A stretch of DNA of 63,995 nucleotides, the filler included, from Blastocystis sp. subtype 4 (Eukaryota), in NCBI RefSeq assembly GCF_000743755.1. It is 39 parts of 39 records of this genome, joined end to end, with 100 filler letters (N's around TTAATTAATTAA, not from the genome) between each part and the next. Parts side by side here need not be neighbours in the genome. Positions count along the whole stretch, not along the records: positions 5,566 to 7,039 come from NW_014568732.1; 38 more parts are not named here. One strand, written 5' to 3'. Below are positions 2,068 through 62,096 of this stretch, in pieces. Both the position numbers and the translations under genes were made by a program. Under the pieces are notes generated by a model. That model had not been told where the DNA came from. It worked only from the letters and a program-made list of their open reading frames with translations, and made no database searches. How positions within the stretch are numbered: the stretch's first letter is position 1; every line of letters starts with the position of its first letter.

Positions 2068-2387
2068 TTGGTTCTGGTGCTTGTAAGAATCATTGTTTGA
2101 TCATTATCAAACAAATCTTTGATCAGTATACAAGCATCTTTAGAATACAATAGTGGAATAGGTGAATCGTACTACTGATCTATATCACGAAGACAATCTT
2201 CATTCTCTGATGGATAATCATATGGATATGCTTCAAATAGAGTTCATTATGGATCTTATCTGTATGGAACTGCTAATCTATTCAAGACTTACGATAAGGA
2301 TTATCACAAAGGCAACAATACGGAATTTGATCTTAATGGTTGACATCCAATTGAAGACTGAAAAGAGAGGATACTCAGACACTTGAA

Positions 2388-3882
2388 GATGCCATTTAAC
2401 TCAATCTCATCAATACCACAAATATCACCATTCCTATTAACAATCCACATACTACAATCAACTTCAATAATGATATTCAACTCCTAACAACAGTTATATC
2501 ACTAGACTATCTGTTCTGGCAGATGCCAAAATACACAATATCACATCCACTCAGATTGTTGTTATTGATGGTGCTCAAATCATATTCAATCCAGGAACTA
2601 TTAGATTCAAGGTTGTAAACACATCTGTACACAGATTAGAAGTATTCTATCAACGCATTTGTAGAAAGGGTGTTCGATATTGTGATGGAACAACCAACTA
2701 CACATTCAATAGTACAGAGAACTTTGTACATTTAGATTCTCCAATCTCTATCAGAACCAATATCAACATTGAATCAACACAACAAGTATTCTCAAATGAT
2801 TATTCAATTGCTGCTGGTGATTATTCATTTGATGTTCTTGCTAAAGGAATCATAGATAATGTGAATTCATGTATGGCAAAACAATGTTGTCTGGTAGTGC
2901 AAACAAGATGTTATACAAAGTGGATTTGGTTGTATCAGAAGCAGTGATACAGTTTAATGATGGATGTGGTGGATCATTCCTGAACTTTATCAATCTACCT
3001 CAAGTGGTTACAGAAGGGTTTATCATGGGAGTATTTGTAGGAAATGGATGGTTAACTGGTTCATTAACAGTTCCTGCAGGAACTCAATTCACATTCATCA
3101 GACAAGAAGAGGAAGAATCAGGTGTTGAACCACATGTGTTTACCTTAACTCAGACCTCTACATGTACAAATGGTGGAGCTTCCTCTGGATTACTTAGTCA
3201 AATCAGAGGGTTAATTGGTAGTTACTATAATAGCATTGGTGGTGATTTAGCATTCACTTCATTTCTGATTTATGGTAAAGCTCATTGTTCATCTATTCGA
3301 GCTGGAGGATCATATGGTGTTTCCAAATTTGGAAGAGCAGGAGAAGGAAATCCTGAATTGTTGGATTATGTAACACTACCAGAAACATTCCTTTCTTCAG
3401 AATGGTATGTATTCAACAAAGTGAATCCCACATTCACACTTCCTAAAGGATACTATACTCAAGAAGAGGAATGTTCATATGTCAAATCAAGTGTTGAATC
3501 TTTGAATGTGTGGGATAAAGTGATTGATAAACCATGTTGGAGTACTGTATTAGAAAGAAGGATTCAAAGGATTACAGGTGCTACATGCTGTTCATTGACA
3601 TCTCATAATCCATTGTGGTTAGTATGTAAACCTAGTGGATCAGTATTCAATACTGGATTGTATACAAATGTGAATCTTCATTTCATAGATCCAAATGAAG
3701 ATATCAGTATGTATACTAATCAAATTGATTACACAGGACCAGATGGGACATCTTGGATGGTTGGATTCACATCTCAACCTACTACACAAGAAGATTGTGT
3801 TGAACAGATGAATGCGATGTTTGCAAGCAAGGGATTAGCGATCTCATGGAAGAAACAAGAAACATGTTACTCAATTGTAGCT
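2388..3882 (+). pseudogene. Long intronless penton/minor-capsid-like viral protein, frameshifted and 3'-truncated
   Basis: Frames join as ...NITIPINNPHTTINFNNDI / NNSYITRLSVLADAKIHNITSTQIVVIDGAQIIFNPG...YSIAAGDYSFDVLAKGIIDNVN / ORF 2869-3882 containing FTLPKGYYTQEE. The [IL]xxGxY motif repeats and no introns are evident. Confidence 0.5.
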
Positions 3883-5565: not shown

Positions 5566-6241
5566 CGATATCATCTGGAAATGATTTCTTATCTATATCA
5601 ATGACTGCATGAGATTCACCAGCTGGTATAACAGCACTTATCACTAATTGACTCAATGGCAGACATTTTTCATTTACAACTCGATTCGAATGTTTCATCT
5701 TCAACAGTATTCAAGCATCTGGCTTGAGGATCATCAGTAATCATTGTAGTAATCAGATTGTTGTTCTGATTGACAATCTTAAGATCAAATGTTTGTACAA
5801 GTGAAAAATGTACTCGAATCACTTGTCTGTTTCTAGTGATATCAATGATATTTGTTCCTCTACCTTCTTGTTCATATTCTGTTTTTGTTAGACCCAGAAT
5901 ATCCATGATATCAGGTGCTTGAGAGAAATCAACTGAACAACTGGAATCAATATGAATACAACCATACTAGTAGCAGCATTGGATAATGAGAATGATGTAT
6001 ATTGCATTTGATTGAACATAGCAATGATGTGAGATGGAGTATTGTATCGTTTATCAAACACTAAGATTCTCCTTAGTATTAGAGAGTATTGGATTGATTG
6101 ATGTTTGAATAGAGCATCTGAAGGTGTGAATAGTACTATCATCATTGTAATGAATGGATTATTGAATCGATAAGAACTGTAGCGGTGAGTGATCCATTCG
6201 ATGGTTAAGCTTGAATGATGAATGATTATTGAGTAGTGCAT
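5566..6241 (-). pseudogene. Decayed Polinton-like minor capsid (penton) gene, longest copy
   Basis: MHYSIII...RFNNPFITMM...HIIAMFNQMQYTSFSLSNAA / GCIHIDSSCSVDFSQAPDIMDILGLTKTEY...TNIIDITRNRQVIRVHFSLVQTFDLKIVNQNNNLITTMITDDP. Follows a degenerate terminus ending at 6429. Confidence 0.65.
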
Positions 6242-6269
6242 TTACTTTATCGACACAATTCTTGTTGTT

Positions 6270-6429
6270 AATCACCTAACAATTTGTCTCGAAATGGTAA
6301 AGTGAGCCTTCTATTTTGATTACTTATTTCGAAAGTAACCCTGTATAGCTACCCAGAGTTGGAGGCCTATGTTGATGATGGTTCGTCTGCCTCCAATATG
6401 TATGTGATATACGTCAAAACCCTACTACT
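6270..6429 (-). mobile_element. Degenerate terminal repeat of the Polinton-like element
   Basis: Minus strand reads AGTAGTAGGGTTTTGACGTAT...CATAGGCCTCCAACTCTGGGTAGCTATACAGGG. Confidence 0.7.
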
Positions 6430-8277: not shown

Positions 8278-8474
8278 AGTAGTAGGTAATTGACGTATGT
8301 TACGTATTCTTTCAAACAGACAAACCGTCGCAAACATGGGCCTCCAACCCTGGGTAGCTATACACGCTTAACCCTACCAGACAAAATCGCCAGTAAAATG
8401 CAGACAAAAAGGCCCGCAGACATTTTGATCATAATTTGGAAACATATCCAACCCATTTCAACTCAAATCATGGG
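8278..8474 (+). mobile_element. Young terminal repeat (putative TIR) of the Polinton-like element
   Basis: AGTAGTAGGTAATTGACGTATGTTACG...CATGGGCCTCCAACCCTGGGTAGCTATACACGCTTAACCC...AAATCATGGG. Closely similar to 42015-42230, 56739-56954 and 29851-29966. Confidence 0.8.
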
Positions 8475-8738
8475 TATGAATATAGCACAAATTCTTTGTT
8501 GTTTGTTTTATCACAATGAAAGATTTTGACATTAATAAACAGTATGAGATTTCCTAATGATATGATTCAACGATACATTTCAGAAATGATAAGTCACCTA
8601 TTCACAAACTATNNNNNNNNNNNNNNNNNNNNNNNNNNNNNNNNNNNNNNNNNNNNTTAATTAATTAANNNNNNNNNNNNNNNNNNNNNNNNNNNNNNNN
8701 NNNNNNNNNNNNTTCGTTGATATTGAGAAAAGAAAGAA

Positions 8739-17664: not shown

Positions 17665-18129
17665 AATGTCTATGTAGGATGAGAAGGAAATGATTATTGG
17701 ATTTCAACTGTTTTATAAAAGGGTTAGATAGTAACATCAATGAGATGATTGGTTTCTTCGATTTTTGTGGTCAAGAAGGATAATCAGCATCATAGTTGTC
17801 GCTTATTGACACTATTCATTATAGATTGAGCAGGCAAACGAACCAGATCACGAGTCTCGAACCCTAGGTATCTATATAGCGTAATTGTACGAAATATGAT
17901 CAATAATTGAAGACTCACTATACTATTTCAAGCCAAAAGCCGAAACAGTGGCCTAGTAACTCGCTCAACCGTAGACTGAGCAATAAGAATAAAATTACAG
18001 CCCTACAGGCTGGTTCAAGCAGTTGAACTGTTGTTAATTGTTAACAACAGTCAACTGCCTGCGTAAGAACTAGAATAATCGTTAAAACAAATAGAATGGA
18101 ATATCGTAATCAGAGAATACAACGGTATA

Positions 18130-18259
18130 TATGAAATGGTAAAGTTACCTTTCATTTGCTTGCATCTTCCCTGTAGAGCTTCCAGGATTGGAGGCTCATG
18201 TTGGCAACGGTCCACCCTATACAAATTATGTACATGATAAGGGTCAACTACTTGCTACT
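18130..18259 (-). mobile_element. Degenerate terminal repeat of the Polinton-like element
   Basis: AGTAGCAAGTAGTTGAC...CAACATGAGCCTCCAATCCTGGAAGCTCTACAGGG. Confidence 0.6.
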
Positions 18260-18474
18260 AAGAGATTAACTGTAGGCCTTCAATTATATTACCACTTCAT
18301 CATACCATTCATTTCTTATTGCTATTTATATCTACACTCTCATATCATATTAATTCTATTCATTTTTCATAATTGATGGAGATAACCGCATTTTCCGCTA
18401 CGACATTAATTTGTTATAATCTCGTTAGTTCTTTTATGTTTGTTACCAAGATCTTGTATGATAATTTGATATGA

Positions 18475-19108: not shown

Positions 19109-20551
19109 ATGTGTTCCAAGTGGAATCATCGAAACTGACAGTATTCCAATCACTTGACACATCACTCTGTATCACCTTCCAATCTGTGTATTCAATCTGG
19201 AAAGGGAGATAGCTTGAGAATACAGTGGTCACAGTCACAGGTTTGATAACATTTCTTGGTACTTCATTGATATCCAATTCCATTTCTCCCATATCAACAG
19301 TCAGAGTATAACCAGATCCAATTGACCATCCATCTCCAAATGAATCAATCGCCTGGAATGTGTAGAAGTCATTCTGAAGACAGAAATCCAGATAATAGTA
19401 CGACTGCTTCACAGGGAATCTGGTTACAGACTGAAGAGGAGTACCAGAAGTGGTTCGACCAGCAAACAGTTTCCATGAGTTTTCACTATCGAAGCTATCA
19501 GCTCGAATTCGAATCGTTATGAGACTCTGAGCACCAGAACACACATTAACACCAAGAGAGAAGGTGGTCGTATAAGAGGTTCCTGTGAACTGAGTAGCTG
19601 TCACAGTATAAGTCGTAGTAGGCGATTGGACCGTAGGAGTACCTGAGATCCATCCATTGAAGGCATCAATCACCAGACCCTGAGGCAGAGCAGGCGTAAT
19701 CTCAAAATGATTGTATCCAAATGAGACACTAGGGATCAACTCAGCCATTTCGATGTTCATAAACGCGGTCACAGACTCATAAGTGAAATCTTCTACGTCT
19801 TCTAACAGATTCTCAGCATACAAATTCAGAGATTGAACTCTCCATGTGCAAGCAGCATTATTACCAGTTCCAAAGTCTTCAAATTTGAACTGATTGTAAG
19901 GAACATTGTTATTAGTGTAAATACGACGCTTCTGAGCAGCCATTGAATAAGTGAGGCCTGATACTTCCGTAATCAGAGTCCATGATTCACTATTGGAGTT
20001 ACGTCCGTATAACTTGAACTGTTTAGCTCCTGAAACCGCCGTATCGTACGAGTTCTGGATTTGAACTGAACCAATCCATTCTCTTCTATCATTATTCAAT
20101 GTGATAGTTAGCGAATTGGAACCACATGAACTCGAACCAATGAATGTGGCTGATGTGAGATCAAAAGGATTTGAAGCACTTCCAGTAATACCACTAATAA
20201 CTCCTGAAAACTCCCAAATGTGGGCCTCAGGTCTGTTAGTCATCAAACGGACAGTCGCATCGAAGTAAGATGTCTTCTGAGTATCGAGAATGGACACAAC
20301 AGCAATAGCAATGGTGTTGAGACCTTGCTTCAGGTAAGTGACTGAAGGCTGTGAGGGATCCTTTGGCACGAACTTACCAGGTAGAGTTACCACACGATAC
20401 AAAAGATTTGTATACGAGTTTTCAGCTTGAGAATTGATCGACAGGTCACCTGTCACTCCATTTCTCCATGCTTCATTTCCATTCAAATACACAATCACTC
20501 CATATCTGTATCGAATCGATACAATCAATCCAGACACTTCATTCAATGAGG
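19109..20551 (-). CDS. He_PIG/galactose-binding-like surface protein fragment
   Basis: Open across the contig. GVIVYLNGNEAWR and LPQGLVIDAFNGWISGTPT. Confidence 0.8.
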
Positions 20552-20651
20552 NNNNNNNNNNNNNNNNNNNNNNNNNNNNNNNNNNNNNNNNNNNNTTAAT
20601 TAATTAANNNNNNNNNNNNNNNNNNNNNNNNNNNNNNNNNNNNNNNNNNNN

Positions 20652-22089
20652 ACTCTCTTCTCAATCAGTCACAATCGAAGCAATGAGTGGAACAGCAATT
20701 GAAACTGTTGTTCTTTCATTCACTGTTATCACTCCTATCACTTCATTCTCTTATCCTCAATCATCCTATATTCTATCAAGAGATGATCCTGTTTCAATCA
20801 TTCCTACAGTCAATGGAGATGATCCTTCCTTCTCTATCACATCTGGATCTCTTCCTATTGGTCTATCTCTCAATCCGTCAACTGGAGTCATATCAGGAAC
20901 TCCTTTTCTATCAGTATCATCTCAAACGGTTACTATCAAAGCATCAAATGAATTGAGTCATCAATCTATCTCACTCACATTCACAGTACTCGTTTCTATC
21001 TCTTCATTCTCATATCCTCAATCATCCTTTGTTCTGACAAAGAATACTCCATTTTCCATCTCTCCTTCTGTTGATGGAGATCAACTCTCATTCTCTATTT
21101 CATCAGGATCACTTCCTGTTGGACTCTCGCTCAATCCTTCAAATGGAATTATCTCAGGAAACCCTTCTCAATTTGTGTCATCTCAATCAGTTACAATCAA
21201 AGCATCAAATGAAGTGAGTGATCAATCATTCTCTATTTCATTCACTGTTCTCACTCCCATCTCTTCATTCTCATATCCTCAGACTTCCTATATCCTATCA
21301 GCTGGTGTATCATTCTCTATTACTCCCACTATCAATGGAGATGATCTATCATTCTCTATCATATCAGGATCACTTCCTTATGGATTGTCACTCAACTCTA
21401 CAACAGGAGTCATATCTGGAACTCCTTCTCAATCAGTATTACCTCAACCAGTTACTATCAAAGCATTCAATGAAGTGAGTGATCAATCTGTTGCTATCAT
21501 AATCACCATTCTCACTCCCATTTCTTCATTTTCATATCCTCAATCATCTTATGTTCTATCAAGAGATGATCCTGTTTCAATCATTCCTTCAATCAATGGA
21601 GATGAACTCTCATTCTCTATCACATCTGGATCTCTTCCTATTGGTCTATCTCTCATTTCATCAACTGGAATGATATCAGGAACTCCTTCTCAATCAGTAT
21701 CATCTCAATCAGTCACAATCAAAGCATTCAATGAAGTGAGTGATCAATCATTCTCTCTTTCATTCACTATTCAACTCATTCCTTCATCTCTCAACTACAA
21801 TCAAACCATCTTCATCATTCAAAACAACATCCACTTCAGTACAACTCCCACCTGTGAAGGAGATGATCTGTCATTCTCCATTATCTCTGGATCTCTTCCT
21901 ATTGGTCTATCTATCGATTCATCAACAGGAATCATATCTGGAACTTCTCTATCTTCAATTCCTCTCACAAACATCACCATTCAAGCATCCAATCAAGTCG
22001 GATCAACTCAATTCACAATCTCCATTCTAGTCATTATTCCTCTATCCAATCTTCATTATTCTCAATTCTCATTCACTCTCATCAAAGGA
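20652..22089 (+). CDS. Tandem He_PIG (putative Ig) repeat region of a surface protein
   Basis: About five 87-aa units (SFSYPQSS...GSLPIGLSLNPSTGVISGTP). Confidence 0.85.
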
Positions 22090-28529: not shown

Positions 28530-28964
28530 ATGGAAGAATTGAAGAGGGTTCAAGAGGAACTTGTGTTTGCTAAAGTAGATGCCAAAGTCGCTAAAGAGAA
28601 TACTGATACTCTAGCTAAGGAAGTGGTTGGATTAAGGGAGAAACTGGCTGAAACTCCTACATTCTACAACAACATTGACAACAATCCAGAAATACTCAAA
28701 TCACTGTATCAAAAGAATATGGAGGTAGAACAGTTACGAGAAATGCTTCAACAAGCCCAGAAAGAGGCTTTGTTAAATCAGGCAGCTGTAGAAGAGAGAA
28801 TAGCTGCTGAGATCAGGAAGAAAGACATTGAATTGATGGAACAAAGGATTAGATACTTGAAGGAACTAATTGATGAAGGTGACAGATATCGCAAGAAACT
28901 GAATGAAAAGGAATCAGTGATTCAAGCATTGTATTGCGAGATTGACAGAGTCAAAAGGGAATAA
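28530..28964 (+). CDS. Intronless coiled-coil protein, possibly an element gene
   Basis: 144-aa E/K/Q-rich ORF. Its stop overlaps the next ATG (TAATG). Lies internal to a degenerate terminus at 29379. Confidence 0.6.
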   Translation: MEELKRVQEELVFAKVDAKVAKENTDTLAKEVVGLREKLAETPTFYNNIDNNPEILKSLYQKNMEVEQLREMLQQAQKEALLNQAAVEERIAAEIRKKDIELMEQRIRYLKELIDEGDRYRKKLNEKESVIQALYCEIDRVKRE

Positions 28965-29239: not shown

Positions 29240-29379
29240 GTTGTTGTTAATTACCCACTAATTTGATTCGAAATGATAAAGCGAGGATTCCATTTTTGTC
29301 ATTTTCCTGTATAGCTACCCAGTGTTAAACGTCCATGTTGGTGAAGGTTTGTACATGATATACATCAATTACCACTACT
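29240..29379 (-). mobile_element. Degenerate terminal repeat of the Polinton-like element
   Basis: AGTAGTGGTAATTGATGTAT...CAACATGGACGTTTAACACTGGGTAGCTATACAGG. Confidence 0.7.
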
Positions 29380-29850: not shown

Positions 29851-29966
29851 TGGCGTTTTTGTCTGGTAGGGTTAAGCGTGTATAGCTACCCAGGGTTGGA
29901 GGCCCATGTTTGCGACGGTTTGTCTGGTTGTAAACAATACGTATCATGCTTCAATTACCTACTAGT
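29851..29966 (-). mobile_element. Young terminal repeat (partial)
   Basis: ACTAGTAGGTAATTGAAGCATGATACG...CATGGGCCTCCAACCCTGGGTAGCTATACACGC. Confidence 0.8.
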
Positions 29967-30180
29967 CGTATATAGTGTTATCAATTCAATCAGTCCTTGT
30001 TTGGACCATTATGTTCTGAAGGAAGAACTGACACTTCATATCACCGTCACCATTACAGTTGTATTCACTCATTCGGTTCAGTGATTATAGTATCTTCAAA
30101 TGTTGTATTGATACATATTACAGAATCATAGGCATCAAGTATCTGTGTTAGGATATTGGAATTAAGTAATATCCTGATGT

Positions 30181-31060
30181 AGTAGTAGCAGTTAACGACA
30201 TATTATTATGGGGTATACTACCAAAAAGGGTTTCCAACCCTGGGAATCTACATGGAAATCACAAAAAGATGGTAAGTTCACTTTACTATTTCGAATCATG
30301 TTGGTGGGTGATAAACAACTGAGTCATTGTGTCTATTCTCCCATTCATGAAAACGTGTTGCTCAATAATCATTAATGGCAAACAACAAATGGTCCATTCA
30401 CTGGAGATATTATGTACATTAGAATCCTTTCATTACAATCAAGAAAGTACTACTAACACCATATTCAGATGCCCTATTCTCAAATATTGATCACATCAAT
30501 ACTGTTTCTAATACTAAATGAGAATTTGTTGTTTGATTAATGATACTCTATCTCACATCATTGCTATTCTCCATCAAATGCATTACGCATTATTCTCATT
30601 ATCCAGTGTTGTTTGCTGTTACCGTTGTATTTACATTGATTCCAATTGTACAATGTGAATACAACCATAACAGATGTTGATTGATAGAAACAGAATAGAA
30701 CACTGATAACAATCCTAAAGTATTTTTAGGACTGAGGGATTGATATGAATGATGAACTGTAATGAAATAATATGTGAATTGTACATTAATGAGAATTGCT
30801 TCTGAATATCATTGAATCACTTCTTTACGCTCATTATCCTGAATCAATGTTCATTAGAGATGGATTTGTGAATGAGGTGTAGTTACTCTTCATGATGTAT
30901 ACCTCACACTAACGTAATGTATGACATTAGTATGCATCAATATGAGAACAGATAAGTGAGTGATAAACAAAGAAGATGCTGCAGTGAACAAGATGTATTG
31001 ATCATTAGATAGTATCTGTCAGATGGATTTGAATGGACAAGAGGTTGATAGTATGATTGA
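30181..31060 (+). mobile_element. Degenerate non-autonomous derivative: terminus, truncated penton-like gene (30353-30660), shared internal segment
   Basis: AGTAGTAG...TTCCAACCCTGGG, then CACATCATTGCTAT...ATTGATTCCAATTGTACAATGTGAAT, then sequence shared with 39850-40245. Confidence 0.65.
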
Positions 31061-38950: not shown

Positions 38951-39476
38951 GATTATTTGGCTGTCAGGATAAATGTTCAGTATCTGATATACACTGTTAA
39001 GGACAATGCTTTGAATACATCCAGAAACAGTTTATTCGTGCTTATGAAGCAATATGAAATGAGAAATGATTGTCTATTATCCTTTTAGTGTCAAAAGCAC
39101 ACTGATCTGTTGAGAGATGGCAATAACGGTATCGAAGAATAGAAATCAATGTGATTGTGTATAATGCTCATACTAAGAGGTGATTTGATTCTTCGTTTCG
39201 TCAATAATCATAATGAGGAACTTCAATGTCTTTGCTGGTATTAACAATACCTAAATCATCTTAGAACGATAGAGATGAGCAGTTAATACTAATCATGCAC
39301 AACCAAGTATGTCGCCAAAATGAATCTTCAATCCTTAATAGCAATAAATGGAAATGTGAAGAAAATGGTAGGCTATGCTCATCATTACGAGCTGCATTGG
39401 GGTGAATAAACGAATTGTTTTAGTATATTCTAATCGAATGTAGGTGGATGGTAACAGGGTATGTAGAAGATACACA
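38951..39476 (+). repeat. Segment duplicated (inverted, near-identical) at 59539-60078
   Basis: GATTATTTGGCTGTCAGG...GAAGATACACA matches the reverse complement of the start of that contig. Confidence 0.9.
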
Positions 39477-39534: not shown

Positions 39535-40245
39535 ATGTATTAATCAATAATCATTCAAGACTAATCATCTAATAGATCATTCATTTGGAACAATCCTTAT
39601 CGATTCAATAATCATTTCATTACATACATCAAAGTACTTCACACCTCTTCAAATACACTCTTTACAAACATCAATCAATTCAATACTCTCTTCAATATCA
39701 AATGTGAATCAATCATATTTGATAAACGATACTATACTCTACCTCACATCATTGATATGATCAATCAAGTACAATACACATCAATCTCAATATCCAATTC
39801 TGTATCCAGTTATGGTTGTATTCATATTGATTCCAGTTGTACAATGTGAATGAAGAACAAGTGATTATGATTGATAGAAACAGAACAGGATACTATATGA
39901 TAACAATCCTAAATGATTGATATGAGACTGAAGAATTAACATGAATGTTGTGGTGATGTGTTGAGCTGATATAGAGTGGTGAGAATGCCTTCTGAATATC
40001 ATTGAATCACTTCTATACAGTCGATTTCCTGAATGATTATTCATTAGAGATGATGTTGTTAATGAAGTGTAGTTTCTCTTTATGACGTATACCTCACACC
40101 GATATAATGTATGCCTAAAGTATACACCAATATAAGAACAAATAAGTGATGATAAACAAAGAAGATGCTGCAGTGAACAAGATGTGTTGATCATTCGATA
40201 GTATCTGTCAGATGGATTTGAATGAACAAGAGGTTGATAGTATGA
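39535..40245 (+). mobile_element. Truncated penton-like relic plus shared internal segment
   Basis: ATG..TCAATAATCATTCAAG...CCTTATCGATTCAATAAT...GGTTGTATTCATATTGATTCCAGTTGTACAATGTGAAT. Abuts a He_PIG module at 40245-40418. Confidence 0.65.
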
Positions 40246-40518
40246 TTGAAGATAAGAGAATGAAGAGATAGAAGTGATAACAGTGAATGAAAGAACAACA
40301 GTTTCAATTGCTGTTCCATTCACTGCTTCGATTGTGACTGATTGAGAAGAGAGTAATTGAGAAGGAGATCCAGAGATGACTCCAGTTGATGGATTGATAG
40401 ATAGACCAATAGGAAGTGNNNNNNNNNNNNNNNNNNNNNNNNNNNNNNNNNNNNNNNNNNNNTTAATTAATTAANNNNNNNNNNNNNNNNNNNNNNNNNN
40501 NNNNNNNNNNNNNNNNNN

Positions 40519-42014: not shown

Positions 42015-42230
42015 CCATGATTTGACTTGAAATGGGTTGGATATGTGTTCCAAATTATGATCAAAATGTCTGCCTTTTCGAGCTTGTTTATGGGCCTTTT
42101 TGTCTGCATTTTAGTGGCGTTTTTGTCTGGTAGGGTTAAGCGTGTATAGCTACCCAGGGTTGGAGGCCCATGTTTGCGACGATTTGTCTGGATAATAACA
42201 ATACGTAACATACGTCAATTACCTACTACT
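42015..42230 (-). mobile_element. Young terminal repeat (putative TIR)
   Basis: AGTAGTAGGTAATTGACGTATGTTACG...AAATCATGG. Confidence 0.82.
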
Positions 42231-42250
42231 ATCACACCTATCAAGAACAT

Positions 42251-42405
42251 AGTATCGTTTTGATGTATATTATATTCAAATTGGAAGCAGACAAAACTGT
42301 CACCAACATGGGTCTTCCAACCCTGGGTAGTTATAGAGGGAAATGGCAAGAAGATGGAAGGCTCACTTCCATTTCAAGTCAAATTGTTAGGTGATTAACA
42401 ACAAG
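42251..42405 (+). mobile_element. Degenerate terminal repeat, back-to-back with the previous one
   Basis: AGTATCGTTTTGATGTAT...CAACATGGGTCTTCCAACCCTGGGTAGTTATAGAGGG. Confidence 0.65.
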
Positions 42406-42569
42406 TTTGATAAGTTTGAACATTTGAATGTGAGACAGATGAAAATGATTGAACGAGAAGAAGAGTGTAGAAGCTAAGGATTGGATGAATTTGAATTGAT
42501 GATTGTACCATTATTGATATTTGTTGTTGAGATATTAGATACAGATAGGAGAAATCGAGTGTATTGAAG

Positions 42570-43021
42570 CCATTCACTGATATTCAGAAGGCATTCTCAC
42601 CACTGTACATCAATTCAAACATCACTACAATTCATCATTCATATCAATTCTTCAATCTCATATCAACCTGTTAGAAATGTTCAAATAGTGTTCTGTTCTG
42701 TTTCCATCAATCACAATCTCTTGCTTCACACTGAACAATTGGAATCAATGTGAATACAACCATAACTAGCAGTATTGGATAATGAGAATGATGTGTGTTG
42801 TATTTGATTGAGCATAGCAATGATGTGAGATAGTATAGTATCTTTTATCAAACATGATTGATTCACATTTGGTACTGAATTGATGTTTGAAAGAGTGCGT
42901 TTGAAACATGTATGAATAGTACTTTGATGAATATAATGAATGGATTGTTGAGTCAATAGAATTGTTTCAAGTAAATGATCCATTTGATTGTTTGTCTTGA
43001 ATGACTATTGAGTAAATACAT
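42570..43021 (-). mobile_element. Truncated penton-like relic plus shared internal segment
   Basis: SHIIAMLNQIQHTSFSLSNTASYGCIHIDSNCSV, then the same downstream segment as 39850+. Confidence 0.65.
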
Positions 43022-45055: not shown

Positions 45056-46427
45056 TATGTTGTGACTCTTCCAGGTAAACAAATGCAAACTTCAACAGTA
45101 ACGAGTCCAGTGACATTCCTTCAATCTGGAAGTAACACGATTGCTATTGCCATTATTGCTATTGATGATACTCAACTCACATCCTATTTCGATACAGTTG
45201 TTCGTTTGATGTGATCAGAACAATCTGAATCTCATATCTGGGATTTCACTGTAGACACATTTAGGATTTACGTTGGTTTCAAAGCTTTTGATATGTACTA
45301 TGGAACCCATATCTCTTCTTCATCCTGTTATTTCAGTTATCTCATTTTGACTCTATCAAACAATCGTCGTGAATGGATCAGTTCTGTTCAGATTCAGAAC
45401 TATTACACTTTATCAATACCATACAGTAGTCAGATGGCAACTCAATTCAAGTTGTATGGTCGTAACTTGGGTACAGATGAATGGACACTTCTTACTGATG
45501 TGACTGGTATAACTTATTCCACTCCTGGTCAGAAGCGAAAGATCTATTTGTCTAACAATACTCCTTACAATCAATTCAAGTTTGGTAACATTGCTACTGG
45601 TGATTCTTCTTCTTGCACTTGGAGAATTCAATCTCTGGATCTGTTTGCTGATAATGTGTTGGCTGATATTCCTAACTTCACTTATGAATCTTCAGTCAGT
45701 GTATTCAAGGATGTTGAGATGTCTGAAGTGATTCCTGAGAATGGAGATGGTTACATGAACTTCAGAATCAATCCTTCTCTTCCTGCTGGTATTGTGTTGG
45801 ATCCTCATACTGGTTGGATTTCAGGTACTGCCACTGTTGAGAGTAGTGCTCAAACCTACACCATCACTGCTACAAAGATGACTGGAGGAAATGTGACTGC
45901 CACTATCTCTTTATCAGTTTCAGTGTGTACTGGAGATTATGGACTAATGACTGTTCGATTCAGAGCTGATTATTATCCTAAAGAGAATTCGTGGAAGTTG
46001 TATGAAGGAAGAGGAACATCAGGAACTGTTCTTCAATCAGTATCTGAATTCCCTGTATATAATGCTTATTACTATGTTGATTTCTGTTTGGATAATGGAA
46101 TCTACACATTTGAAGGAGCTGATTCATGGGGAGATGGATGGGATAATGATTCTGGTTACACTCTGACTGTTGATTATGGAGAGATGGAGTTGGATATCAT
46201 GGAAATGAGTAGTCAGGATTATTCACCCATTTATGTATCAACTGTGTTCTCAACCTACTTCCCTTTCCAGATTGAATACACAGATTGGAAGGTGATACAG
46301 AGTGATGTGTCAAGTGATTGGAATACTATCAGTTTCGATGATTCCACTTGGAACACATACAAGGCTGTTGATATTCCTTCCACTTCTTCAATCACAACAT
46401 ATATCCGAAAGAGTTTCACAATGAGTG
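45056..46427 (+). pseudogene. He_PIG/galactose-binding-like surface protein fragment with a premature stop
   Basis: In-frame TGA at 45212-45214 where the paralog at 34404-35819 has TCA. Otherwise open. Confidence 0.7.
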
Positions 46428-46527
46428 NNNNNNNNNNNNNNNNNNNNNNNNNNNNNNNNNNNNNNNNNNNNTTAATTAATTAANNNNNNNNNNNNNNNNN
46501 NNNNNNNNNNNNNNNNNNNNNNNNNNN

Positions 46528-47897
46528 AAAGAGAGAATGATTGATCACTCACTTCATTGAATGCTTTGATTGTTACTGATTGAGATGATATTGATTGAGA
46601 AGGAGTTCCTGAGATCATTCCAGTTGATGAATTGAGAGATAGGCCAATAGGAAGAGATCCTGAAGTGATAGAGAAAAAAGGATTCGTCCCTTGCTTTTCT
46701 GGTGAGACAGAATAGTCTTCTCCAAGAGAAAGGATATAAGAAGTCTGAGGATAAGAGAACGAAGAGATAGGAATTAGAACAGAAAATGAAAGAGAATACG
46801 TTCGATTACTCACTTCATTGAATGCTTTGATTGTAACGGATTGAGATGACACTGAATGAGAAGGAATACCTGATATCATTCCATTTGATGAGTTAAGCAA
46901 CAGACCAATAGGAAGAGATGCTGATGAAACAGAGAACGATAAGTTATCTCCAGTAACCGTAGGAGTGATGAAGAATGATTCATCTATTGATAGGGTATAC
47001 GAAAACTGAGGATATGAGAATGAAGAGATAGGAGTGAGAACAGTGAATGAAAGAGAGAATAATTGATTCTCCAATTCATTAGATACTTTGATTGTTACTG
47101 ATTGAGATGATACTGATTGAGAAGGAGTTCCTGATATCATTCCATTTGAAGAATTGAGTGAGAGTCCAACTGGAAGAGATCCGAATGTAGTCAAGAATGA
47201 AAGCTCATCTCCATCAACAGTAGGAGAGATACAGAATGGACTGTTCTTTGACAGAACATAAGATGATTGAGGATAAGAGAATGAAGAGATAGAAGCGAGC
47301 ACTGTGAACGCAAGTGAGATAGTTTGATTACTCACTTGATTGAATGCTTTGATTGTTACTGATTGAGATGATACTGATTGAGAAGGAGATCCTGATATCA
47401 TTCCAGTTGATGAATTGAAAATCAAACCAGTAGGAAGCAATCCTGATATGATAGAGAAAGACTGCTCATCTCCATCAACAGTAGGAGAGATACAGAATGG
47501 ACTGTTCTTTGACAGAACATAAGAAGATTGAGGATAAGAGAATGAAGAGATAGAAGCGAGCACTGTGAACGCAAGTGAGATAGTTTGATTACTTACTTTA
47601 TTCGATGCACTGATTGTAACTGATTGAGATACGACAAACTGAGAAGGAGTTCCTGATATGACTCCGTTTGATGGATTGAAAGATAATCCAGTAGGAAGAG
47701 ATCCTGATGTGATAGAGAATGAGACCTCATCTCCATCAACAGTAGGAATGATAGAGAATGGATGATTCTTTGTGAGAAAATAAGATGATTGAGGATATGA
47801 GAATGAAGAGATAGGAGTGATAACAGTGAATGAAAGAACAACAGTTTCAATTGCTGTTCCACTCACTGCTTCGATTGTGACTGATTGAGAAGAGAGT
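46528..47897 (-). CDS. Tandem He_PIG repeat region
   Basis: About five 87-aa Ig-like units. Confidence 0.85.
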
Positions 47898-47997
47898 NNN
47901 NNNNNNNNNNNNNNNNNNNNNNNNNNNNNNNNNNNNNNNNNTTAATTAATTAANNNNNNNNNNNNNNNNNNNNNNNNNNNNNNNNNNNNNNNNNNNN

Positions 47998-49366
47998 GAC
48001 AGTATTCCAATCACTTGACACATCACTCTGTATCACCTTCCAATCTGTGTATTCAATTTGGAAAGGGAAATATGTTGAGAACACAGTGGTCACAGTCACA
48101 GGCTTCACACCAGTGTTCGGTACTTCATTCATATCCAACTCCATCTCTCCATAGTCCACAGTCAGAGTATATCCACTTCCTACAGCCCAACCATCACCCC
48201 AAGAATCCTGAGCTTGGAATGTGTAGATTCCATTCTCCAAACAGAAATCCAGATAGTAATAACCACCTCTCACAGGGAACGTATTGACTGATTGAAGAGG
48301 ATCTCCAATAGCTCCTCTTCCTTCATACAGCTGCCATGAATTCTCTGTAGAATATGTATCCGCTCGAATACGCACAGTCATCAGCCCACGAGTTGTAGTA
48401 CACAATTCCACCGAGAGAGAGAATTGGACAGTCACACTTCCACCAATCAACTTTTGAGCTGTGACTGTGTATTCTGTCAAAGGAGTCAAGACAGTAGCTG
48501 TACCAGAAATCCATCCATTAGTCGAATCAAATTGAAGGCCTGAAGGAAGAGCAGGACTGATTGTGAAGTTAATATACCCATCTCCTTCGGGGATCAGTTC
48601 AGCCATTTCGACATCACGAATCACAGTCGTTGAAGCAGGATAGGTAAGAGGTGCTGGATCACTGAGGAGGTTATCAGCATAGAGATTCAGCGACTGAATC
48701 AACCAATCACACGATTCACCACTCTTAAAGCTCTCAAACTTAAATTGATTGTAAGGAGCATTGTTCACAAAATAGATTCGTTTCTTCTGACCAGCCATCG
48801 AATAGCTCAAACCATCCACATCCGCCAATAGTACCCAATCTGTATCTATTCCATTACGACCATAGAGTTTGAATGCAGTCACCGATTTGGCATTTGCCTC
48901 ATAATTGTTCTGAATCTGAATCGAACTCACCCATTCTCTTCTGTCATTGTCCATCACCAATGTCAATGAACTGGTGCAAACACTACCATAGAAAGTATCA
49001 GCATATCCCAAGCTGAATGCATTTGCTCCACTTGATGAAGCATTCATTGTGGTTGATGTAAACTCCCAGATATGAGACTCTGAATGACTTGTCATAAGTC
49101 GAACAGTAGCATCAAATAATGCCTGTGTTTGTGTCTCTGTAATGGCCACAACAGCAATTGCAATCACATTAGTACCCTGCTTGAGATAGTTGACTACTGG
49201 AGACGACCCAACAGAGATCGTACGACCTGGGAGGGTTACTACATGGTACTTCAAATCAGTAAAAGCGTTCTCAGCAGTGGATGAAGTGGACAAATCTCCA
49301 ATCACTCCATTTCTCCATGCTTCATTTCCATTCAAATACACAATCACTCCATATCTGTATCGAATC
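47998..49366 (-). CDS. He_PIG/galactose-binding-like surface protein fragment
   Basis: LPSGLQFDSTNGWISGTAT. Paralog of 19109-20551. Confidence 0.82.
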
Positions 49367-50931: not shown

Positions 50932-53142
50932 CAACTTGACAAACCTGATCCCGATAGATAGTTGCTAACACTTGATATTTCCAGGAATTGAAGATAAAGT
51001 ACTGATTAACAGAGATACCAATACGCGAGTCAGTATCTCTCAGATAAGTGAGAATGTCCTTATCTGCTATATTACAGAGACGATTGATTTCAATTATGGA
51101 GACGAGCGGATTCTTCGCAGTTAATAACTTCCGAATATCTTTCTTCACTAAATAGATGAACTTTTGCGTTTCAGGATCCAATGTTGTCTTCATATCTACC
51201 TTCAAATCAAGATGATCATAGAATAGACTATATAGATGCTTTGAAGTCCTTTTGAATAGCCCCTTATCATCAATAAACAATTGACCAATCTCCTTTTGAT
51301 TCAGAAAGAATAATCCATCTCCTTCTCGGGCATGACTCATGTAATAGTCTCGAATACTTCTCAACAGAGGAATTACATCCATCTGAAGAGTAGTGTCAGC
51401 TTGACAAATAGCGATTCCTTGAACCAATGGTTGAAGATAATATACTGTTCTCAGAAGCTCCCTTTTATCAATCTTTCCCATTGAAGCCATGAATTCATTC
51501 TTCTTTTGTTTGCTGTAGGCAGTAGGGTTCTGTTTCATATCCTTATATAAAGCTTTCATAGACTCATACAATGAATAGAATCTTCTCATAACTAAAACTG
51601 CACTATACCACCGCGTTTCACAGTATGATAGGAGTTTATATCGCCTATTCCTCTTTCTCTTAGGAATCCAAAGATCAGGAACAGCAATACAACTATCGTT
51701 AGCGTCACTAGAATCGCTGGAGTCATCCCCTGAGTCATTAGGGAGAGTACTGTCTTTGATATCATTATTCATACTAGTATCATCAATCCATATGTGCTCC
51801 ATTTCATTCCTTTCGTAGAGTGATTCACGGACATACTGAACGATTGGTCCTTCATCAAGATTACCTATAGATAATTAAACAATCCAAGAAATACTCCTAT
51901 TCTCATAACACCAGGACCACTCAAGGATCTGAGGAATTGGCTCAAACGGTGAGATTTGTTGGAATTCCATCATCTTGTTGTAGAGAATCTTGGAGGATAA
52001 TACACAGGCATTTGCTTCACGCACCTAATAATGAGAGAGATAACCATCACGGACATTATTCCAAAGAGTCTTTAGAGGCTCCTGTTTCAACATCTTCTTG
52101 AGTATTCCATTCAGATAATGTGATACACAAGGAATACGAGGTATACTCCTTCCACAATAAGCTTTCACAAAATCCTCTGTTCCTCGCATGACACTACAGT
52201 TGTCTGTTGCATATGCAACAACATCAAGGCCCAGTTTAGTTAACTCCTTCACTTGATCAGCTATTGCCTTCCCAACATCACTAGATGCTCTTGTTTCCAT
52301 ACTAATACTGTCCCAAAAGAAAACGTTCACCCCTCTCATATCAATATCACTATCTGCTGCTAACACGAAATTGTAATAAGAACAATGATTCTTCCTCATC
52401 TCATCAACAACTAGAGTCACTTTACAACCCATTAGTTGATTCACAACAAAATCCATCACCTTCTTTGCAGTATGAGGAAGCAGCTTATTACAGAATGTCG
52501 TCGAACTTACTCTACGAAACTCCGGCGCACAAGATTCCATGAATATTCTCCACCAAGGAGAATCCAACAGAGATAGCGACAAATTGGCATTTGAAGCAAA
52601 TAACACCAAATCATCATTGCTAGTAGCAGTTCGTTTCACGTAGTGATCCATTGTTCCTTCTTCCTGATGAGTCTAGAGGTTGTGAACGAATCACAATTAT
52701 ACTCGTTTTATAGATTTCATGCCACAAACGACATCAATACTATTATTCATCATCTTAGTGTTGTAGGTGCTCACAATCTACTATTAACTCTATTCCAAAA
52801 TGTTACATCCCTTATTGTAACTGAGTAAATGGAATAATCACTCGAGAAATGGTTTTGATATGGTTGATGCATTTCTTCTTATCCGCAGAAATCAGTTTCT
52901 TACATATGAAACCTGCAATTGAACATAGCATACAGTCACATACATGTTACTTTACATTTATTTCTCTTTGAATATAGAATCATCCTCTTATCCCCAGAGA
53001 ATACCTCAATATACTTATCATCTGGCATACTCCTAGGATCAGTAACCATAACTCTGCCATAATTGACTAAGATGTCTGATACAATCTCCGATGAAGGTAG
53101 TTCCACTCCCCTTTTCTCTAAACAAGTCTTTAGGAGTTCCAT
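50932..53142 (-). CDS. hAT-superfamily transposase-derived protein with introns, 3'-truncated
   Basis: BED-like CFIC..H, TLVVDE, YATDN, CxxH (PCVSH), ETRWYS. Confidence 0.8.
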
Positions 53143-56469: not shown

Positions 56470-56692
56470 CGATTATGTCAGCTAGAGTATAATATCCTTT
56501 CTCAAATACTACAGATTCTCCTTTATCATTAGATACAGTATTGGTTTGATCAATGTTTGAAAAGAGTGAATCTGAATTTGGTGTTAATAGTACTTTCATC
56601 ATAGTAATGTATGGATTATTGAAACGATAAGGATTCTCTCATGTGAATGATCCATTTGATGGTTTGCCTTGAATGATTATTGAATAATGCAT
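56470..56692 (-). pseudogene. Penton-like gene 5' part, least decayed copy (single in-frame TGA)
   Basis: MHYSIIIQGKPSNGSFT*ENPYRFNNPYITMMKVLLTPNSDSLFSNIDQTNTVSNDKGESVVFEKGYYTLADII. Starts ~47 nt inside the terminal repeat. Confidence 0.7.
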
Positions 56693-56738
56693 TTATTGCT
56701 AGAAAGAATTAACGACAACATTCTTGTTCTTATTGTTG

Positions 56739-56954
56739 CCCATGATTTGACTTGAAATGGGTTGGATATGTTTCCAAATTATGATCAAAATGTCTGCCTT
56801 TTCGAGCTTGTTTATGGGCCTTTTTGTCTGCATTTTACTGGCGTTTTTGTCTGGTAGGGTTAAGCGTGTATAGCTACCCAGGGTTGGAGGCCCATGATTG
56901 CGACGATTTGTCTGTATGTTAAGAATACGTAACATACGTCAATTACCTACTATT
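56739..56954 (-). mobile_element. Young terminal repeat (putative TIR)
   Basis: AATAGTAGGTAATTGACGTATGTTACG...AAATCATGGG. Confidence 0.82.
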
Positions 56955-58040: not shown

Positions 58041-59438
58041 AGTAGGAAGAGATCCTGATATGATTGAGAATGAGAGTTCATCTCCATCAACAGTAGGAGA
58101 GATAGAGAATGATTCACCAGCAGATTGAACATATGTAGACTCAGGATAAGAGAATGAAGTGATGGATTGAAGAACAGTGAATATGAGTATGGCAGGCTGA
58201 TCACTTACTTCATTGAATGCTTTGATAGTGACTGATTGAGATATGACAGATTGAGAAGGAGTTCCTGATATCATTCCATTAGAAGGATTGAAAGATAGAC
58301 CAGTAGGAAGTGATCCTGATATGATTGAGAATGAGAGTTCATCCCCATCGATTGAAGGAGAGATAGAGAATGGATCATATTTGGATAGAGTATATGTAGA
58401 ATTAGGATAAGAGAATGAAGTGATGGATTGAAGAACAGTGAATGAAAGAGAGAATGATTTATCATTACTCACATCATTGAATGCTTTGATTGTGACTGAT
58501 TGAGATAAGACAAACTGAGAAGGAGTTCCTGATATCATTCCATTTGAAGGATTGAAAGATAAACCAATAGGAAGAGATCCAGAAGTAATAGAAAATGAAG
58601 GTTCATATCCATCAACAGTAGGAGAGATAGAGAATGGATCATTCCTTTTCAGAACATATGTAGAGTCAGGATATGAGAATGAAGTGATGGATTGAAGAAC
58701 AGTGAATGAAAGAGAGAATGATTTATCATTACTCACATCATTCGAGGCTTTGATTGTGACTGATTGAGATAAGACAAACTCAGAAGGAATTCCAGAGATG
58801 ACTCCAGTTGAAGGATTGAGAGACAAACCAGTAGGAAGAGATCCTGATGAGGTAGAGAATGATAAATCATCTCCATCGATTGAAGGAGAGATAGAGAATG
58901 GATCATTCCTTGATAGAACATACGTAGAATTAGGATAAGAGAATGAAGTGATGGATTGAAGAACAGTGAATGAAAGAGAGAATGATTTATCATTACTCAC
59001 ATCATTCGAGGCTTTGATAGTAACTGATTGAGATATGATGAATTGAGAAGGAGTTCCTGATATCATTCCAGTTGTTGAATTGAGAGACAAACCAGTAGGA
59101 AGAGATCCTGATGAGGTAGAGAATGATAAATCATCTCCATTGATTGAAGGAGAGATAGAGAATGGATCATTCCTTGATAGAACATACGTAGAATTAGGAT
59201 AAGAGAATGAAGTGATGCGAGTGAGCACCTTGAATGAAAGAGGGAAGGTCTGATTACTTACTTCATTGAATGCTTTGATTGTAACTGATTGAGATATGAT
59301 GAATTGAGAAGGAATTCCTGATATCATTCCATTAGAAGAATTGAGAGACAAACCAGTAGGAAGAGATCCTGATGAGATAGAGAATGATAAATCATCTCCA
59401 ATGACAGTAGGAGAAATAGAGAATGGATCATCTTTGGA
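58041..59438 (-). CDS. Tandem He_PIG repeat region with highly homogenised units
   Basis: Near-identical 264-nt (88-aa) units, e.g. at 58456, 58720 and 58984. Confidence 0.85.
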
Positions 59439-60284
59439 NNNNNNNNNNNNNNNNNNNNNNNNNNNNNNNNNNNNNNNNNNNNTTAATTAATTAANNNNNN
59501 NNNNNNNNNNNNNNNNNNNNNNNNNNNNNNNNNNNNNNTGTGTATCTTCTACATACCCTGTTACCATCCACCTACATACGATTAGAATATACTAAAACAA
59601 TTCGTTTATTCACCCCAATGCAGCTCGTAATGATGAACAAAGCCTACCATTTTCTTCACATTTCCATTTATTGCTATTAAGGATTGAAGATTCATTTTGG
59701 CGACATACTTGGTTGTGCATGATTAGCATTAACTGCTCATCTCTATCGTTTCTAAGATGATTTAGGTATTGCTAATACCAGCAAAGACATTGAAGTTCCT
59801 CATTATGATTATTGACGAAACGAAGAATCGAATCACCTCTTAGTATGAGCATTATACACAATCACATTGATTTCTATTCTTCGATACCGTTATTGCCATC
59901 TCTCAACAGATCAGTGTGCTTTTGACATGTGCTTTTGACACTAATAGGATAATAAACAATCATTTCTCATTTCATATTACTTCATAAGCACGAATAAACT
60001 GTTTCTGGATGTATTCAAAGCATTGTCCTTAACAACGTATATCAGATACTGAACATTTATCCTGACAGCCAAATAATCAGGAAGGATCCAATAAATGTAC
60101 ATTTGACTAATAGAATAAAGGACCAAATACCCAATTATGATCCTATAATATGTGCATGTTCAGTAATGTGACATTGTGTTGCTTGTTATTACCTCCACAT
60201 ATTACCTCCACATCGTAGAAACGATGAATGGTGGAATACACTCGCTTGTAGTATAATTCATTTGAGAGAATACTCAAGCAAATA

Positions 60285-62096
60285 TGCGCAAGTACAATAA
60301 AGCAGCTAGGCCTCATCCAGAACCTCACACTACTAACTCCAGCAGCTATCCAGAAGCGACTCCGTATTCCAACAAGAAAGAGAGGTATTGTGAGGGTGAT
60401 TAATCAATGAATAGAGCCATTGGGAACATTGAAAGAGGTTCTTTGACTTCTGAACAATTTGATGTACTCACTACTGTTTTGAAGGGCTATGTTTGTGTTT
60501 GCTGTTGATTCATAATGAGAATGTCTTTTTCACTGGTGAAGCAGGAACTGGAAAGAGTCACTTACTCCGAGTTATTGTAACAGCTCTTCAACAACAACTA
60601 GGAGCCAACCATGTTTATGTGACAGCATCTACAGGCATTGCTGCTAATCACATTGACGGGACCACTATTCACTCCTTTGCAGGAATGACATCTCCTGACA
60701 TTAATCCTGCATACATCTACAAGCAGATACTAAACCAAAGTACCAAGGAAGTGATAAATCACTGGAAGACTTGTGAAGTCTTGATCATCGATGAGATATC
60801 GATGATAGATGGTCGCTTTTTCGATACGCTTGAATACAAAGCCAGACGTGTTCGGAATAACAATCTTCCTTTTGGAGGAATTCAAGTCATTCTTTGTGGT
60901 AGATTCTTTGATATTCACAATCATTCTTAGGAGATTTCTTCCAGTTGCCTCCTGTGGGACTTGACAAGAATGGTGTCAAGTTTGCTTTTGAGGCACATTC
61001 ATGGGATACAGTGATTGAAGTGGACTTTGATTGATAGATTAATAGATAGAAGAAAATGGTACTTACAACCGCTTTCAGGCAACAAGATCAGCGTTTGCAA
61101 AAACTGTTGAGAGATATTCGATATGTAGGATTTGTTTGTCTAGTTGTCAAGATAGGGTCAATGCTCTCAACAATCTTTACAACTCATTGATGAAATGAGT
61201 AATCATGATGTAGATGCGATGCTGAGTAACTCTACACCTGATCATGAAATGGGTGAAGTTGTTGAGGAGATTGGTCAAGAGAGTATGGTAATTGAAAGTA
61301 CTCAGTAGGAACTGGTTGATAGAATAACAACAGTCTATTCGCAAAGAATGATTGAAAGTACTCAGTAGGAACTGGTTGATAGAATAACAACAGTCTATTC
61401 GCAAAGAATGATGAAGCTAATAAGTATAACAAGATGAAGCTAGATGAGTTAAGAGGTTCATCGAAGCCTTACAAAGCTGTTGACAAGGAATGTACAATCT
61501 GTATTGAATTACAACCATAGTTGTTGCTAATGGCATCAAGAAACTGAATAAGCATTGTTTAGCTGCNCAAGTATTGAGATAAAGCAAGGAGCTCAGGTAA
61601 TGCTATTGAAGAATTTGGATTTGAAAATGGGATTGGTGAATGGAGTAAGTGGAAAGGTTATCTCCTTTGCTAGGGATTGTGAAGGCGGTGAATTGTTGCC
61701 TCTGATAAGATGGAAAACGAGAAATGGAGATTTGACCAAGTTGTGTCATCGAGTTGAGTTCAAGATTTCTAAAGAAGGTAAAACGCTTGCATGTCGTTCT
61801 CAACTTCCAAATGAATGAGGAATGTGATCTAGGCATGGGGAGTAACCATTCACAAGGCACAGGGAATGACACTTGAGTACTTAACGATCGATTTATCAGA
61901 TGTGTTTGAATGTGGCATGACGTATGTGGCTATGAGTCGAGGAGTAACTTGTGATCACATGTGTGTGAAAGGATTTAAGAAGGAAGATGTGAAGACGAAT
62001 CCAAGAGTATTAGCATTTGATAAGACAATTCGAGGAGAGAGAGAAGCACCTCATCCTGTTCAATCAGCACCAGTGATTCGTTTATATCCTTTCTAG
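60285..62096 (+). CDS. PIF1: PIF1-family SF1B DNA helicase (multi-exon, with lesions)
   Basis: FFTGEAGTGKS, TASTGIAA, GTTIHSFAG, LIIDEISM, PFGGIQVILCGDFFQLPPV, GAQVMLLKN, TIHKAQGMTL, YVAMSR. Start approximate. Confidence 0.9.

Follow-up and report, generated by a model that had tools for sequence, protein, structure and literature searches.

In the pentons of mavirus, Sputnik and adenovirus, an insertion domain lies between strands D and E, as described in the text of PMC6048507. Each of these pentons has one jelly roll per chain and forms a homopentamer, whereas the intact protein described here has two jelly rolls per chain and an extension of 467–674 aa in the insertion of the second. Long insertions as such are on record: P1v1 of PBCV-1 carries a two-domain DE insertion (text of PMC9617893), the EhV penton has an insertion of 538 residues and five domains (text of PMC11006232), and for adintoviruses the text of PMC11071296 reports pentons with double or triple nested inserts as well as duplicate penton genes. 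P1v1, the penton of EhV-201 and the long-insert pentons of adintoviruses are precedents for a core combined with a spike, as in the second half of our protein, but each is a single jelly roll and the duplicates are separate genes. Adintoviruses further have animal hosts and an OTU-bearing PolB (text of PMC11071296), while the host genes of the stretch analysed below point to a protist. Finally, the vertex of the tectivirus PR772 is a P5/P31 heteropentamer in which spike-bearing and spike-less paralogues share one ring (text of PMC6750898). This is an analogue for a mixed vertex, although the PR772 chains have one base domain each and the spike-bearing chain here has two.

A member of the same protein family is already present in UniProt under the label penton: A0A8S5L5B1 (MELD virus sp., 996 aa) is 50% identical over 1028 columns to P0005, the nearest intact relative of our copies. 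It probably comes from the Blastocystis MELD virus that Starrett et al. published in 2021 (PMC8502044; preprint 10.1101/697771), a study whose text reports a Blastocystis virus with PolB, an integrase and divergent virion proteins; the parts of that text available to us describe no domain architecture, decayed genomic copies or deletion derivatives. A second match, a 236-aa "uncharacterized" protein of MELD virus sp., resembles the 226-aa single penton of a complete related element (G001:C142) discussed below. Among the open-access texts searched, none describes two penton jelly rolls within one chain; figures or supplements may show such a protein. Published work thus already covers a Blastocystis MELD virus, penton inserts that are long or nested, duplicated penton genes and a vertex built as a heteropentamer. 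The apparent novelty is the fusion of two pentons in one chain with its own variable spike, a variant worth a structural test.

Here, we analyse five stretches that are probably the broken, integrated remains of the first part of a gene from a Polinton-like (MELD) virus of Blastocystis. This gene is predicted to encode a double penton, for which a mixed vertex is our first choice among the assemblies considered, at less than even odds. The fossils record repeated integration of at least two Polinton-like lineages into what is likely a Blastocystis genome, and they tie a protein family that is widespread in gut metagenomes to a host.

Decayed penton copies in the window

The window, i.e. the whole stretch of 63,995 nucleotides analysed here, consists of 39 short contigs with spacers of the form N44-TTAATTAATTAA-N44 between the parts. 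Because the spacers are artificial, adjacency across them carries no meaning; the five penton copies are on five different short contigs. DNA identity among the copies is 73–84% over 203–305 aligned columns. In a tblastn search with P0005 (1019 aa, encoded on a 21.5-kb contig) as the query, copies 1, 3 and 5 scored 127–146 bits and copies 2 and 4 scored 48–53 bits; against these values of 48–146 bits, the maximum in 30 locally shuffled windows was 28.5 bits.

Copy 1 (5700..6241, minus strand) is a decayed 5' part that corresponds to aa 1–183 of P0005, and its open stretch is 72% identical to P0005. It stops matching at aa 183, 134 nt short of the contig end, and the remaining positions 5566–5700 gave no matches to the complete element G001:C142 or to 33 full-length proteins of the family. 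Copies 2 (30354..30844, plus strand), 3 (39535..40058, plus strand) and 4 (42527..43021, minus strand) each join two separate parts of P0005, namely aa 4–105 to aa 274–344, aa 1–105 to aa 274–352 and aa 3–105 to aa 274–350, respectively. Break counts from our own frameshift-aware alignment are approximate and amount to ~6 frameshifts in copy 1, ~5 frameshifts and four stops in copy 2, ~2 and five in copy 3, and ~5 and five in copy 4. Copy 5 (56470..56692, minus strand), which is cut by a contig end, covers aa 1–74 of P0005 at 96% identity; its 74 codons contain a single stop and are free of frameshifts. In addition, we detected a sixth fragment (2373..3882, plus strand) that corresponds to aa 246–321 and 559–984 of P0104, a divergent member of the family, with 77–97% identity; it comprises second jelly roll and spike, and has an internal deletion, frameshifts and a truncation by the contig end.

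The first-pass annotation had placed five related stretches of a penton-like gene at these positions, and with the identities and bit scores given above, the latter far exceeding the shuffled maximum, this is borne out; the motifs that it listed as typical of Polinton, Polinton-like virus and virophage minor capsid proteins are likewise present in the three-frame translations. The ends that it assigned need correction: the match of copy 1 is confined to 6241–5700, and copies 2–4 run on into a second penton domain at 30640–30844 (copy 2), 39831–40058 (copy 3) and 42744–42527 (copy 4). The protein sequence that it merged from the copies is built on real copies, but past ~aa 105 copy 1 is the sole source, and the merge covers only 183 of the 1019 residues of the nearest intact protein. 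What this earlier reading overlooked is the gene's length of ~1000 aa, its two jelly rolls and its long insertion, a deletion common to three of the five copies, and the flanking terminal repeats.

The jump from aa 105 to aa 274 of P0005 occurs at an identical DNA junction in copies 2, 3 and 4, and, therefore, these three copies go back to one deleted ancestor and are not independent. Copies 2 and 3 share ~200 more bases past the penton match (30844–31060 and 40058–40249), which do not match the complete element, and the tails of copies 1–4 in general gave no convincing match to it. All six copies bear stops or frameshifts. The copies are non-coding, and as fossils they are ordinary Polinton-like debris. 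No Pfam or PHROGs family was found for the copies or for their intact relatives. Relative to copy 5, the substitution spectrum is mixed with many transversions, and we rejected RIP-like or methylation-driven decay. The observed/expected ratio of CpG is 0.46 in the window, 0.80–0.89 in three young terminal repeats and 0.10 for the sixth fragment, whereas the viral part of the related locus L001 has 1.1; compared with copy 5, C>T is found in five of eight CpG cells and G>A in none of eight. These base counts give a weak hint that CpG may have been lost after integration.

Intact relatives and their predicted fold

A protein search queried with copy 1's longest open stretch identified 93 relatives among 126 candidates >172 aa, and 16 of these 93 relatives have a length of 972–1121 aa. 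A profile search of a library clustered at 50% gave 404 proteins at E≤0.001, of which the best 150 were examined. From both searches together, we drew 33 proteins of ≥950 aa as the full-length set. Scans of IMG/VR and of GenBank phages found no relative; a metagenome scan yielded at least one locus from 597 candidate stretches and a genome scan one locus from 107.

A profile of aa 1–224 matched all 33 full-length proteins in the same pattern: the whole profile aligns at the N-terminus, and then its first half recurs at ~aa 240–370 and its second half at the C-terminus. For hhalign, see the values below: it gave probabilities of 99.4 and 99.2 for this split second copy of domain 1. Specifically, P0005 consists of a complete penton-like domain (aa 1–222) and a second one divided between aa 236–355 and aa 930–1016. 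Across the full-length set, the second jelly roll is split near the end of its own insertion by the variable segment of 467–674 aa. Mean pairwise identity is 0.34–0.46 in both cores and the first inserts versus 0.18–0.26 in the long insertion. Partial echoes of the insert motifs inside the long insertion, weak and mostly non-significant when taken singly, suggest nested repeats, and we consider that the long insertion is likely a spike. In an unrooted tree of 22 of the 33 proteins, a single branch with support 99/98 separates core 1 from core 2, which fits a single ancient duplication that preceded the family's spread. The two cores are joined by a linker that is short and variable in length and sequence; a protease cut between the cores is unsupported, with a Gly-Gly pair in none of the 33 linkers.

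A search of PDB sequences with the domain-1 profile had no hits. To examine the fold, we used an AlphaFold2 model of P0005 based on 140 sequences (pLDDT 80.9), which superseded an earlier 16-sequence model with low confidence in both cores; because the pTM is 0.52, the placement of the domains relative to each other is uncertain. Residues 1–226 of the model align with adenovirus penton base with Z 10–11 over ~217 residues at an rmsd of ~6, with a PBCV-1 capsid chain of 504 residues with Z 10.7, with the mavirus penton with Z 8.8 and with a Sputnik capsid chain with Z 8.2. The alignments with pentons span core and insert (~217 of 226 residues), in agreement with a DE-loop insertion domain, and residues 44–135 alone match an adenovirus-derived domain (8coi, Z 6.2). 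Residues 236–1018 align with the mavirus penton with Z 10.3 over 223 residues; the rmsd of 27 Å arises because the insertions fail to superpose. Thus, both halves of P0005 align with solved pentons at Z about 10, as proteins with an eight-stranded jelly-roll core do. The spike domains gave only matches of Z 5–6, which is a common range.

In Foldseek comparisons with viral models, the top match was the 996-aa "putative penton capsid protein [MELD virus sp.]" with 50% identity over the full length. Next came the 236-aa MELD virus protein, then adomavirus LO5, minor capsid proteins of giant viruses and that of mavirus; the matches also include minor capsid proteins of 820–888 aa from Klosneuvirinae. 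Against the PDB, the first row was a capsid chain of EhV-201 that fits poorly (rmsd 34), and the mavirus penton (6g41/6g42, E 5e-6) and adenovirus penton base came after it. The comparison by AlphaFold and Foldseek that the first-pass annotation proposed for its merged sequence was run on the intact relative P0005 instead, and the penton identity is upheld by the MELD virus putative penton at the top of BFVD and by the penton structures that align with the model; unrelated host proteins, which the annotation had named as evidence to the contrary, were not the best structural matches, which are viral pentons. The single jelly roll that it expected is correct as to a jelly-roll fold of the penton type but not as to number, in that two homologous cores per chain are present in all 33 intact relatives.

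Terminal repeats and a complete related element

Eight repeat ends were identified by self-comparison of the window and aligned into a profile, which added two ends with E 3e-10 and 2.5e-5 as well as two that match weakly. When eight older ends served to train a second profile, the full set of 12 was recovered, including the four untrained young ends with 46–57 bits versus ≤5.0 in 10 shuffles. The four young ends agree at 105–109 of 114–115 positions and start with TAGTAGG. AGTAG termini are typical of Polintons.

Copies 1, 2, 3 and 5 begin 20–120 nt inside an AGTAG-ended terminal repeat. Based on the repeat profiles, older-type repeats lie directly upstream of copy 1 (6264..6429, minus strand) and upstream of copy 2 (30180..30319, plus strand). 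The repeat upstream of copy 3 (39270..39414, plus strand) is strongly decayed and was recognised by alignment; it is weak with the first profile (E 0.47) and was not in the training set. Copy 5 is preceded by a young repeat with the terminus TAGTAGG (56724..56953, minus strand), found by self-comparison and profile. For copy 4, no upstream terminal repeat was detected, and an older-type repeat recognised by the profiles faces it from downstream (42250..42402, plus strand), likely the right end of a mini-element. Among the 12 ends in the window, two pairs or arrangements are inward-facing.

The remaining ends lie apart from the penton copies. No viral gene was detected behind the young repeat at 8278..8490 (plus strand), and at the young repeats at 42015..42231 and 29851..29965 (both minus strand) the element leaves the contig. 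A further older-type repeat (29243..29378, minus strand) was recognised by the profiles; ~280 nt inside it, an intact ORF of 144 aa at 28530–28964 (plus strand) is coiled-coil-like, matches no family above cut-off and is possibly the terminal gene at the other end of the element. A facing decayed pair at 17793–17954 (plus strand) and 18117–18260 (minus strand), with E 2.5e-5 and 3e-10 and outside the training set, has no detected gene between its ends. This old remnant is the only one with both ends on one contig, and its flanks do not match as a target-site duplication, of 6 bp in Polintons, would. The last end (59601..59745, minus strand) is a decayed repeat in a duplicate of the region upstream of copy 3, on a contig that ends before the gene. 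Specifically, 38951–39476 and 59539–60078 are 95% identical and include the terminal repeat of copy 3, indicating that duplication spread some copies. We also observed that two of the four young repeats end back to back with an older element end at distances of 18 nt (42231/42250) and ~215 nt (29965/30180); such back-to-back ends are possible insertion hot spots or shared permissive regions.

Two related loci show how penton genes and terminal repeats can be arranged. In L001, the order read by eye is an AT-rich flank, AGTAGTAGG and the start of the penton gene ~490 nt on; this penton is 57% identical to P0005, and its gene is directly inside the terminal repeat. The complete element G001:C142 (loci L002 and L004), which is from a scan of prokaryote genomes, has a length of 23,175 bp with 85-bp exact inverted ends. 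Its presence in a gut bacterial MAG is most likely due to misbinning, and its assignment to a host is inferred. A Polinton unit is roughly 15–25 kb long, and the element falls within this range; 15 of 61 relatives are on contigs of 18.6–23.6 kb and none is on a longer contig.

The genes of G001:C142 are, in order, a 1722-aa polymerase-like ORF, a 1035-aa double penton, a 109-aa ORF, a 226-aa single penton, an 893-aa ORF and a Gly-Gly-rich 348-aa ORF, followed by protease-like, ATPase-like and capsid-like ORFs, KilA-N and an rve integrase. Pfam supports a role only for KilA-N and the rve integrase (PF00665, E 3.8e-16, above the curated cut-off). The double penton is 38% identical to P0005, and its gene is internal, after the polymerase-like gene, and not at the terminal repeat. 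The 226-aa ORF is a single penton by its match to the domain-1 profile (E 5e-16; hhalign 91.7). The 109-aa ORF between the two penton genes (L002 9065–9394) has a weak match to the C-terminal strands of pentons (E 0.003–0.014 among 16 proteins, hhalign probability 0.2), and judged from this similarity it may be a minimal, insert-less fourth jelly roll. The 1722-aa ORF had no Pfam, PHROG or PDB sequence match; read by eye, it contains YLDANNLYG, KLLANSIYGK and GQDTDS, which resemble motifs of PolB, the protein-primed family B polymerase. Pentons of Polintons, Polinton-like viruses, virophages and adenoviruses occur together with genes for a double jelly-roll major capsid protein, a packaging ATPase and a protease. 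The protease, ATPase and major capsid candidates of G001:C142 had no Pfam or PDB sequence match, with P-loop and protease-like motifs seen by eye. For the candidate major capsid protein of 424 aa, the Atlas score to viral clusters is 0.97; one of these clusters has Capsid_N on 15% of its members, and this lead is to Nucleocytoviricota-type clusters. Rumen virophages are described as having no recognisable penton in the texts of PMC4409740 and PMC9952930, and the virophage-type major capsid protein is recognised by established HMMs (text of PMC9952930); a link to rumen virophages is unsupported by the capsid lead. With 21 proteins of G001:C142 as queries, no further viral gene was found in the window, the rve integrase included, indicating that the parent of the copies is not seen whole.

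In principle, copies 1 and 5 could also be the ends of short non-autonomous elements, composed of a terminal repeat and a penton gene, and not of full proviruses with a terminal penton. The internal position of the penton gene in the one complete relative would fit this, as would the existence of deletion derivatives (copies 2–4 and the pair at 17793–18260) and the break in copy 1 ahead of the contig end. However, L001 also has its penton gene directly inside the terminal repeat, which suggests that this is the natural gene order in some lineages, and P0005 is on a contig of 21.5 kb; we consider short elements possible but doubtful. Our working hypothesis remains that a virus with a double-penton gene integrated repeatedly by means of its integrase, in at least two waves and from two lineages. 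Copy 5, whose repeat is 92–96% identical to three others, would represent the recent wave; copies 2–4 would derive from a single mini-element with an internal deletion, which multiplied either in trans or through segmental duplication, and neutral decay would have followed the spread of this deleted derivative.

The capsid vertex and the host

We suggest that the intact protein would form the vertex of the capsid, its two jelly rolls being part of the shell and its long insertion projecting as a fibre-like attachment spike. If both cores are in the ring, a two-core chain alone is unable to fill a five-membered ring, which argues for a mixed vertex; together, the equal conservation of the cores, the short variable linker and the adjacent single penton make a mixed vertex our best guess. 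Tentatively, we propose that this vertex might be completed by the 226-aa single penton, e.g. as two double chains and one single chain. Going further, we speculate that a covalent penton dimer with its own spike may have replaced the homopentamer across a whole family of Polinton-like viruses of gut protists. The dimer would give either an asymmetric vertex together with a single penton or, as a trimer, a penton-derived pseudo-hexamer, which would repeat the proposed step towards double jelly-roll capsid proteins; this proposal, too, we regard as plausible but somewhat short of probable.

A different assembly would be a homopentamer in which each of five long chains contributes a single core to the ring and keeps its other core peripheral or stacked; it might sit at a special vertex, and the 226-aa penton would build the ordinary vertices. 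PBCV-1 has a comparable division of labour, in that the long-insert penton variant P1v1 occupies the unique vertex, with the short P1 at the other eleven (text of PMC9617893), and the 504-residue PBCV-1 chain is among the best structural matches (Z 10.7). The variation of the linker in length and sequence is also compatible with a second core outside the ring. However, P1v1 has one jelly roll, and equal conservation of both cores is easier to understand if both make ring-type contacts. We consider the homopentamer somewhat less likely than the mixed vertex. It is even less probable that three double pentons form a spike-bearing pseudo-hexamer at hexon positions, which would be a second, penton-derived origin of the double jelly roll. 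Taken together, both cores do align weakly with capsid proteins of the double jelly-roll type (Z 6.1 for STIV), but Z values of this size fall in the tool's common range, AlphaFold may set any two linked jelly rolls side by side, and the related element G001:C142 has its own 424-aa candidate major capsid protein. That the copies belong to a domesticated or ordinary host jelly-roll gene family is very improbable, because, although they sit among host multigene families (Ig-like, LRR), stops or frameshifts are present in six of six copies, the intact relative whose surroundings can be seen is part of a viral-type element and the best structural matches are viral pentons.

A chain with two penton cores would break the rule of five identical vertex subunits, and its variable spike is a candidate for what determines attachment to the host among Blastocystis subtypes. 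Because the complete genome of 23 kb carries every candidate capsid gene, the vertex question is directly testable with virus-like particles.

The host of the window is likely a divergent Blastocystis, as judged from its genes. An ABC-transporter fragment had 22 matches, of which only two are named, Blastocystis subtypes 4 and 1, at ~50% identity. Introns of 32–34 nt were read by eye in what is, from its translation, presumably a ribosomal-protein gene, and TGTTTGTT occurs 19 times versus 10.5 expected. Host multigene families fill most contigs, i.e. expanded families of Ig-like (He_PIG) repeats with units of ~88 aa and LRR-like proteins (e.g. 19109–22089, 45056–49366 and 58041–59438). Two ORFs at 50932–52672 (minus strand) with a weak match to DUF659 (E 0.006) look like a transposase remnant of the hAT type, and a PIF1-like helicase fragment at 60463–60930 (plus strand; E 2e-31) is from a host gene or a mobile element. 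The integrated viral remnants make up ~6.0 of 60 kb in the window, a share that applies to unplaced short contigs, which are probably repeat-enriched.
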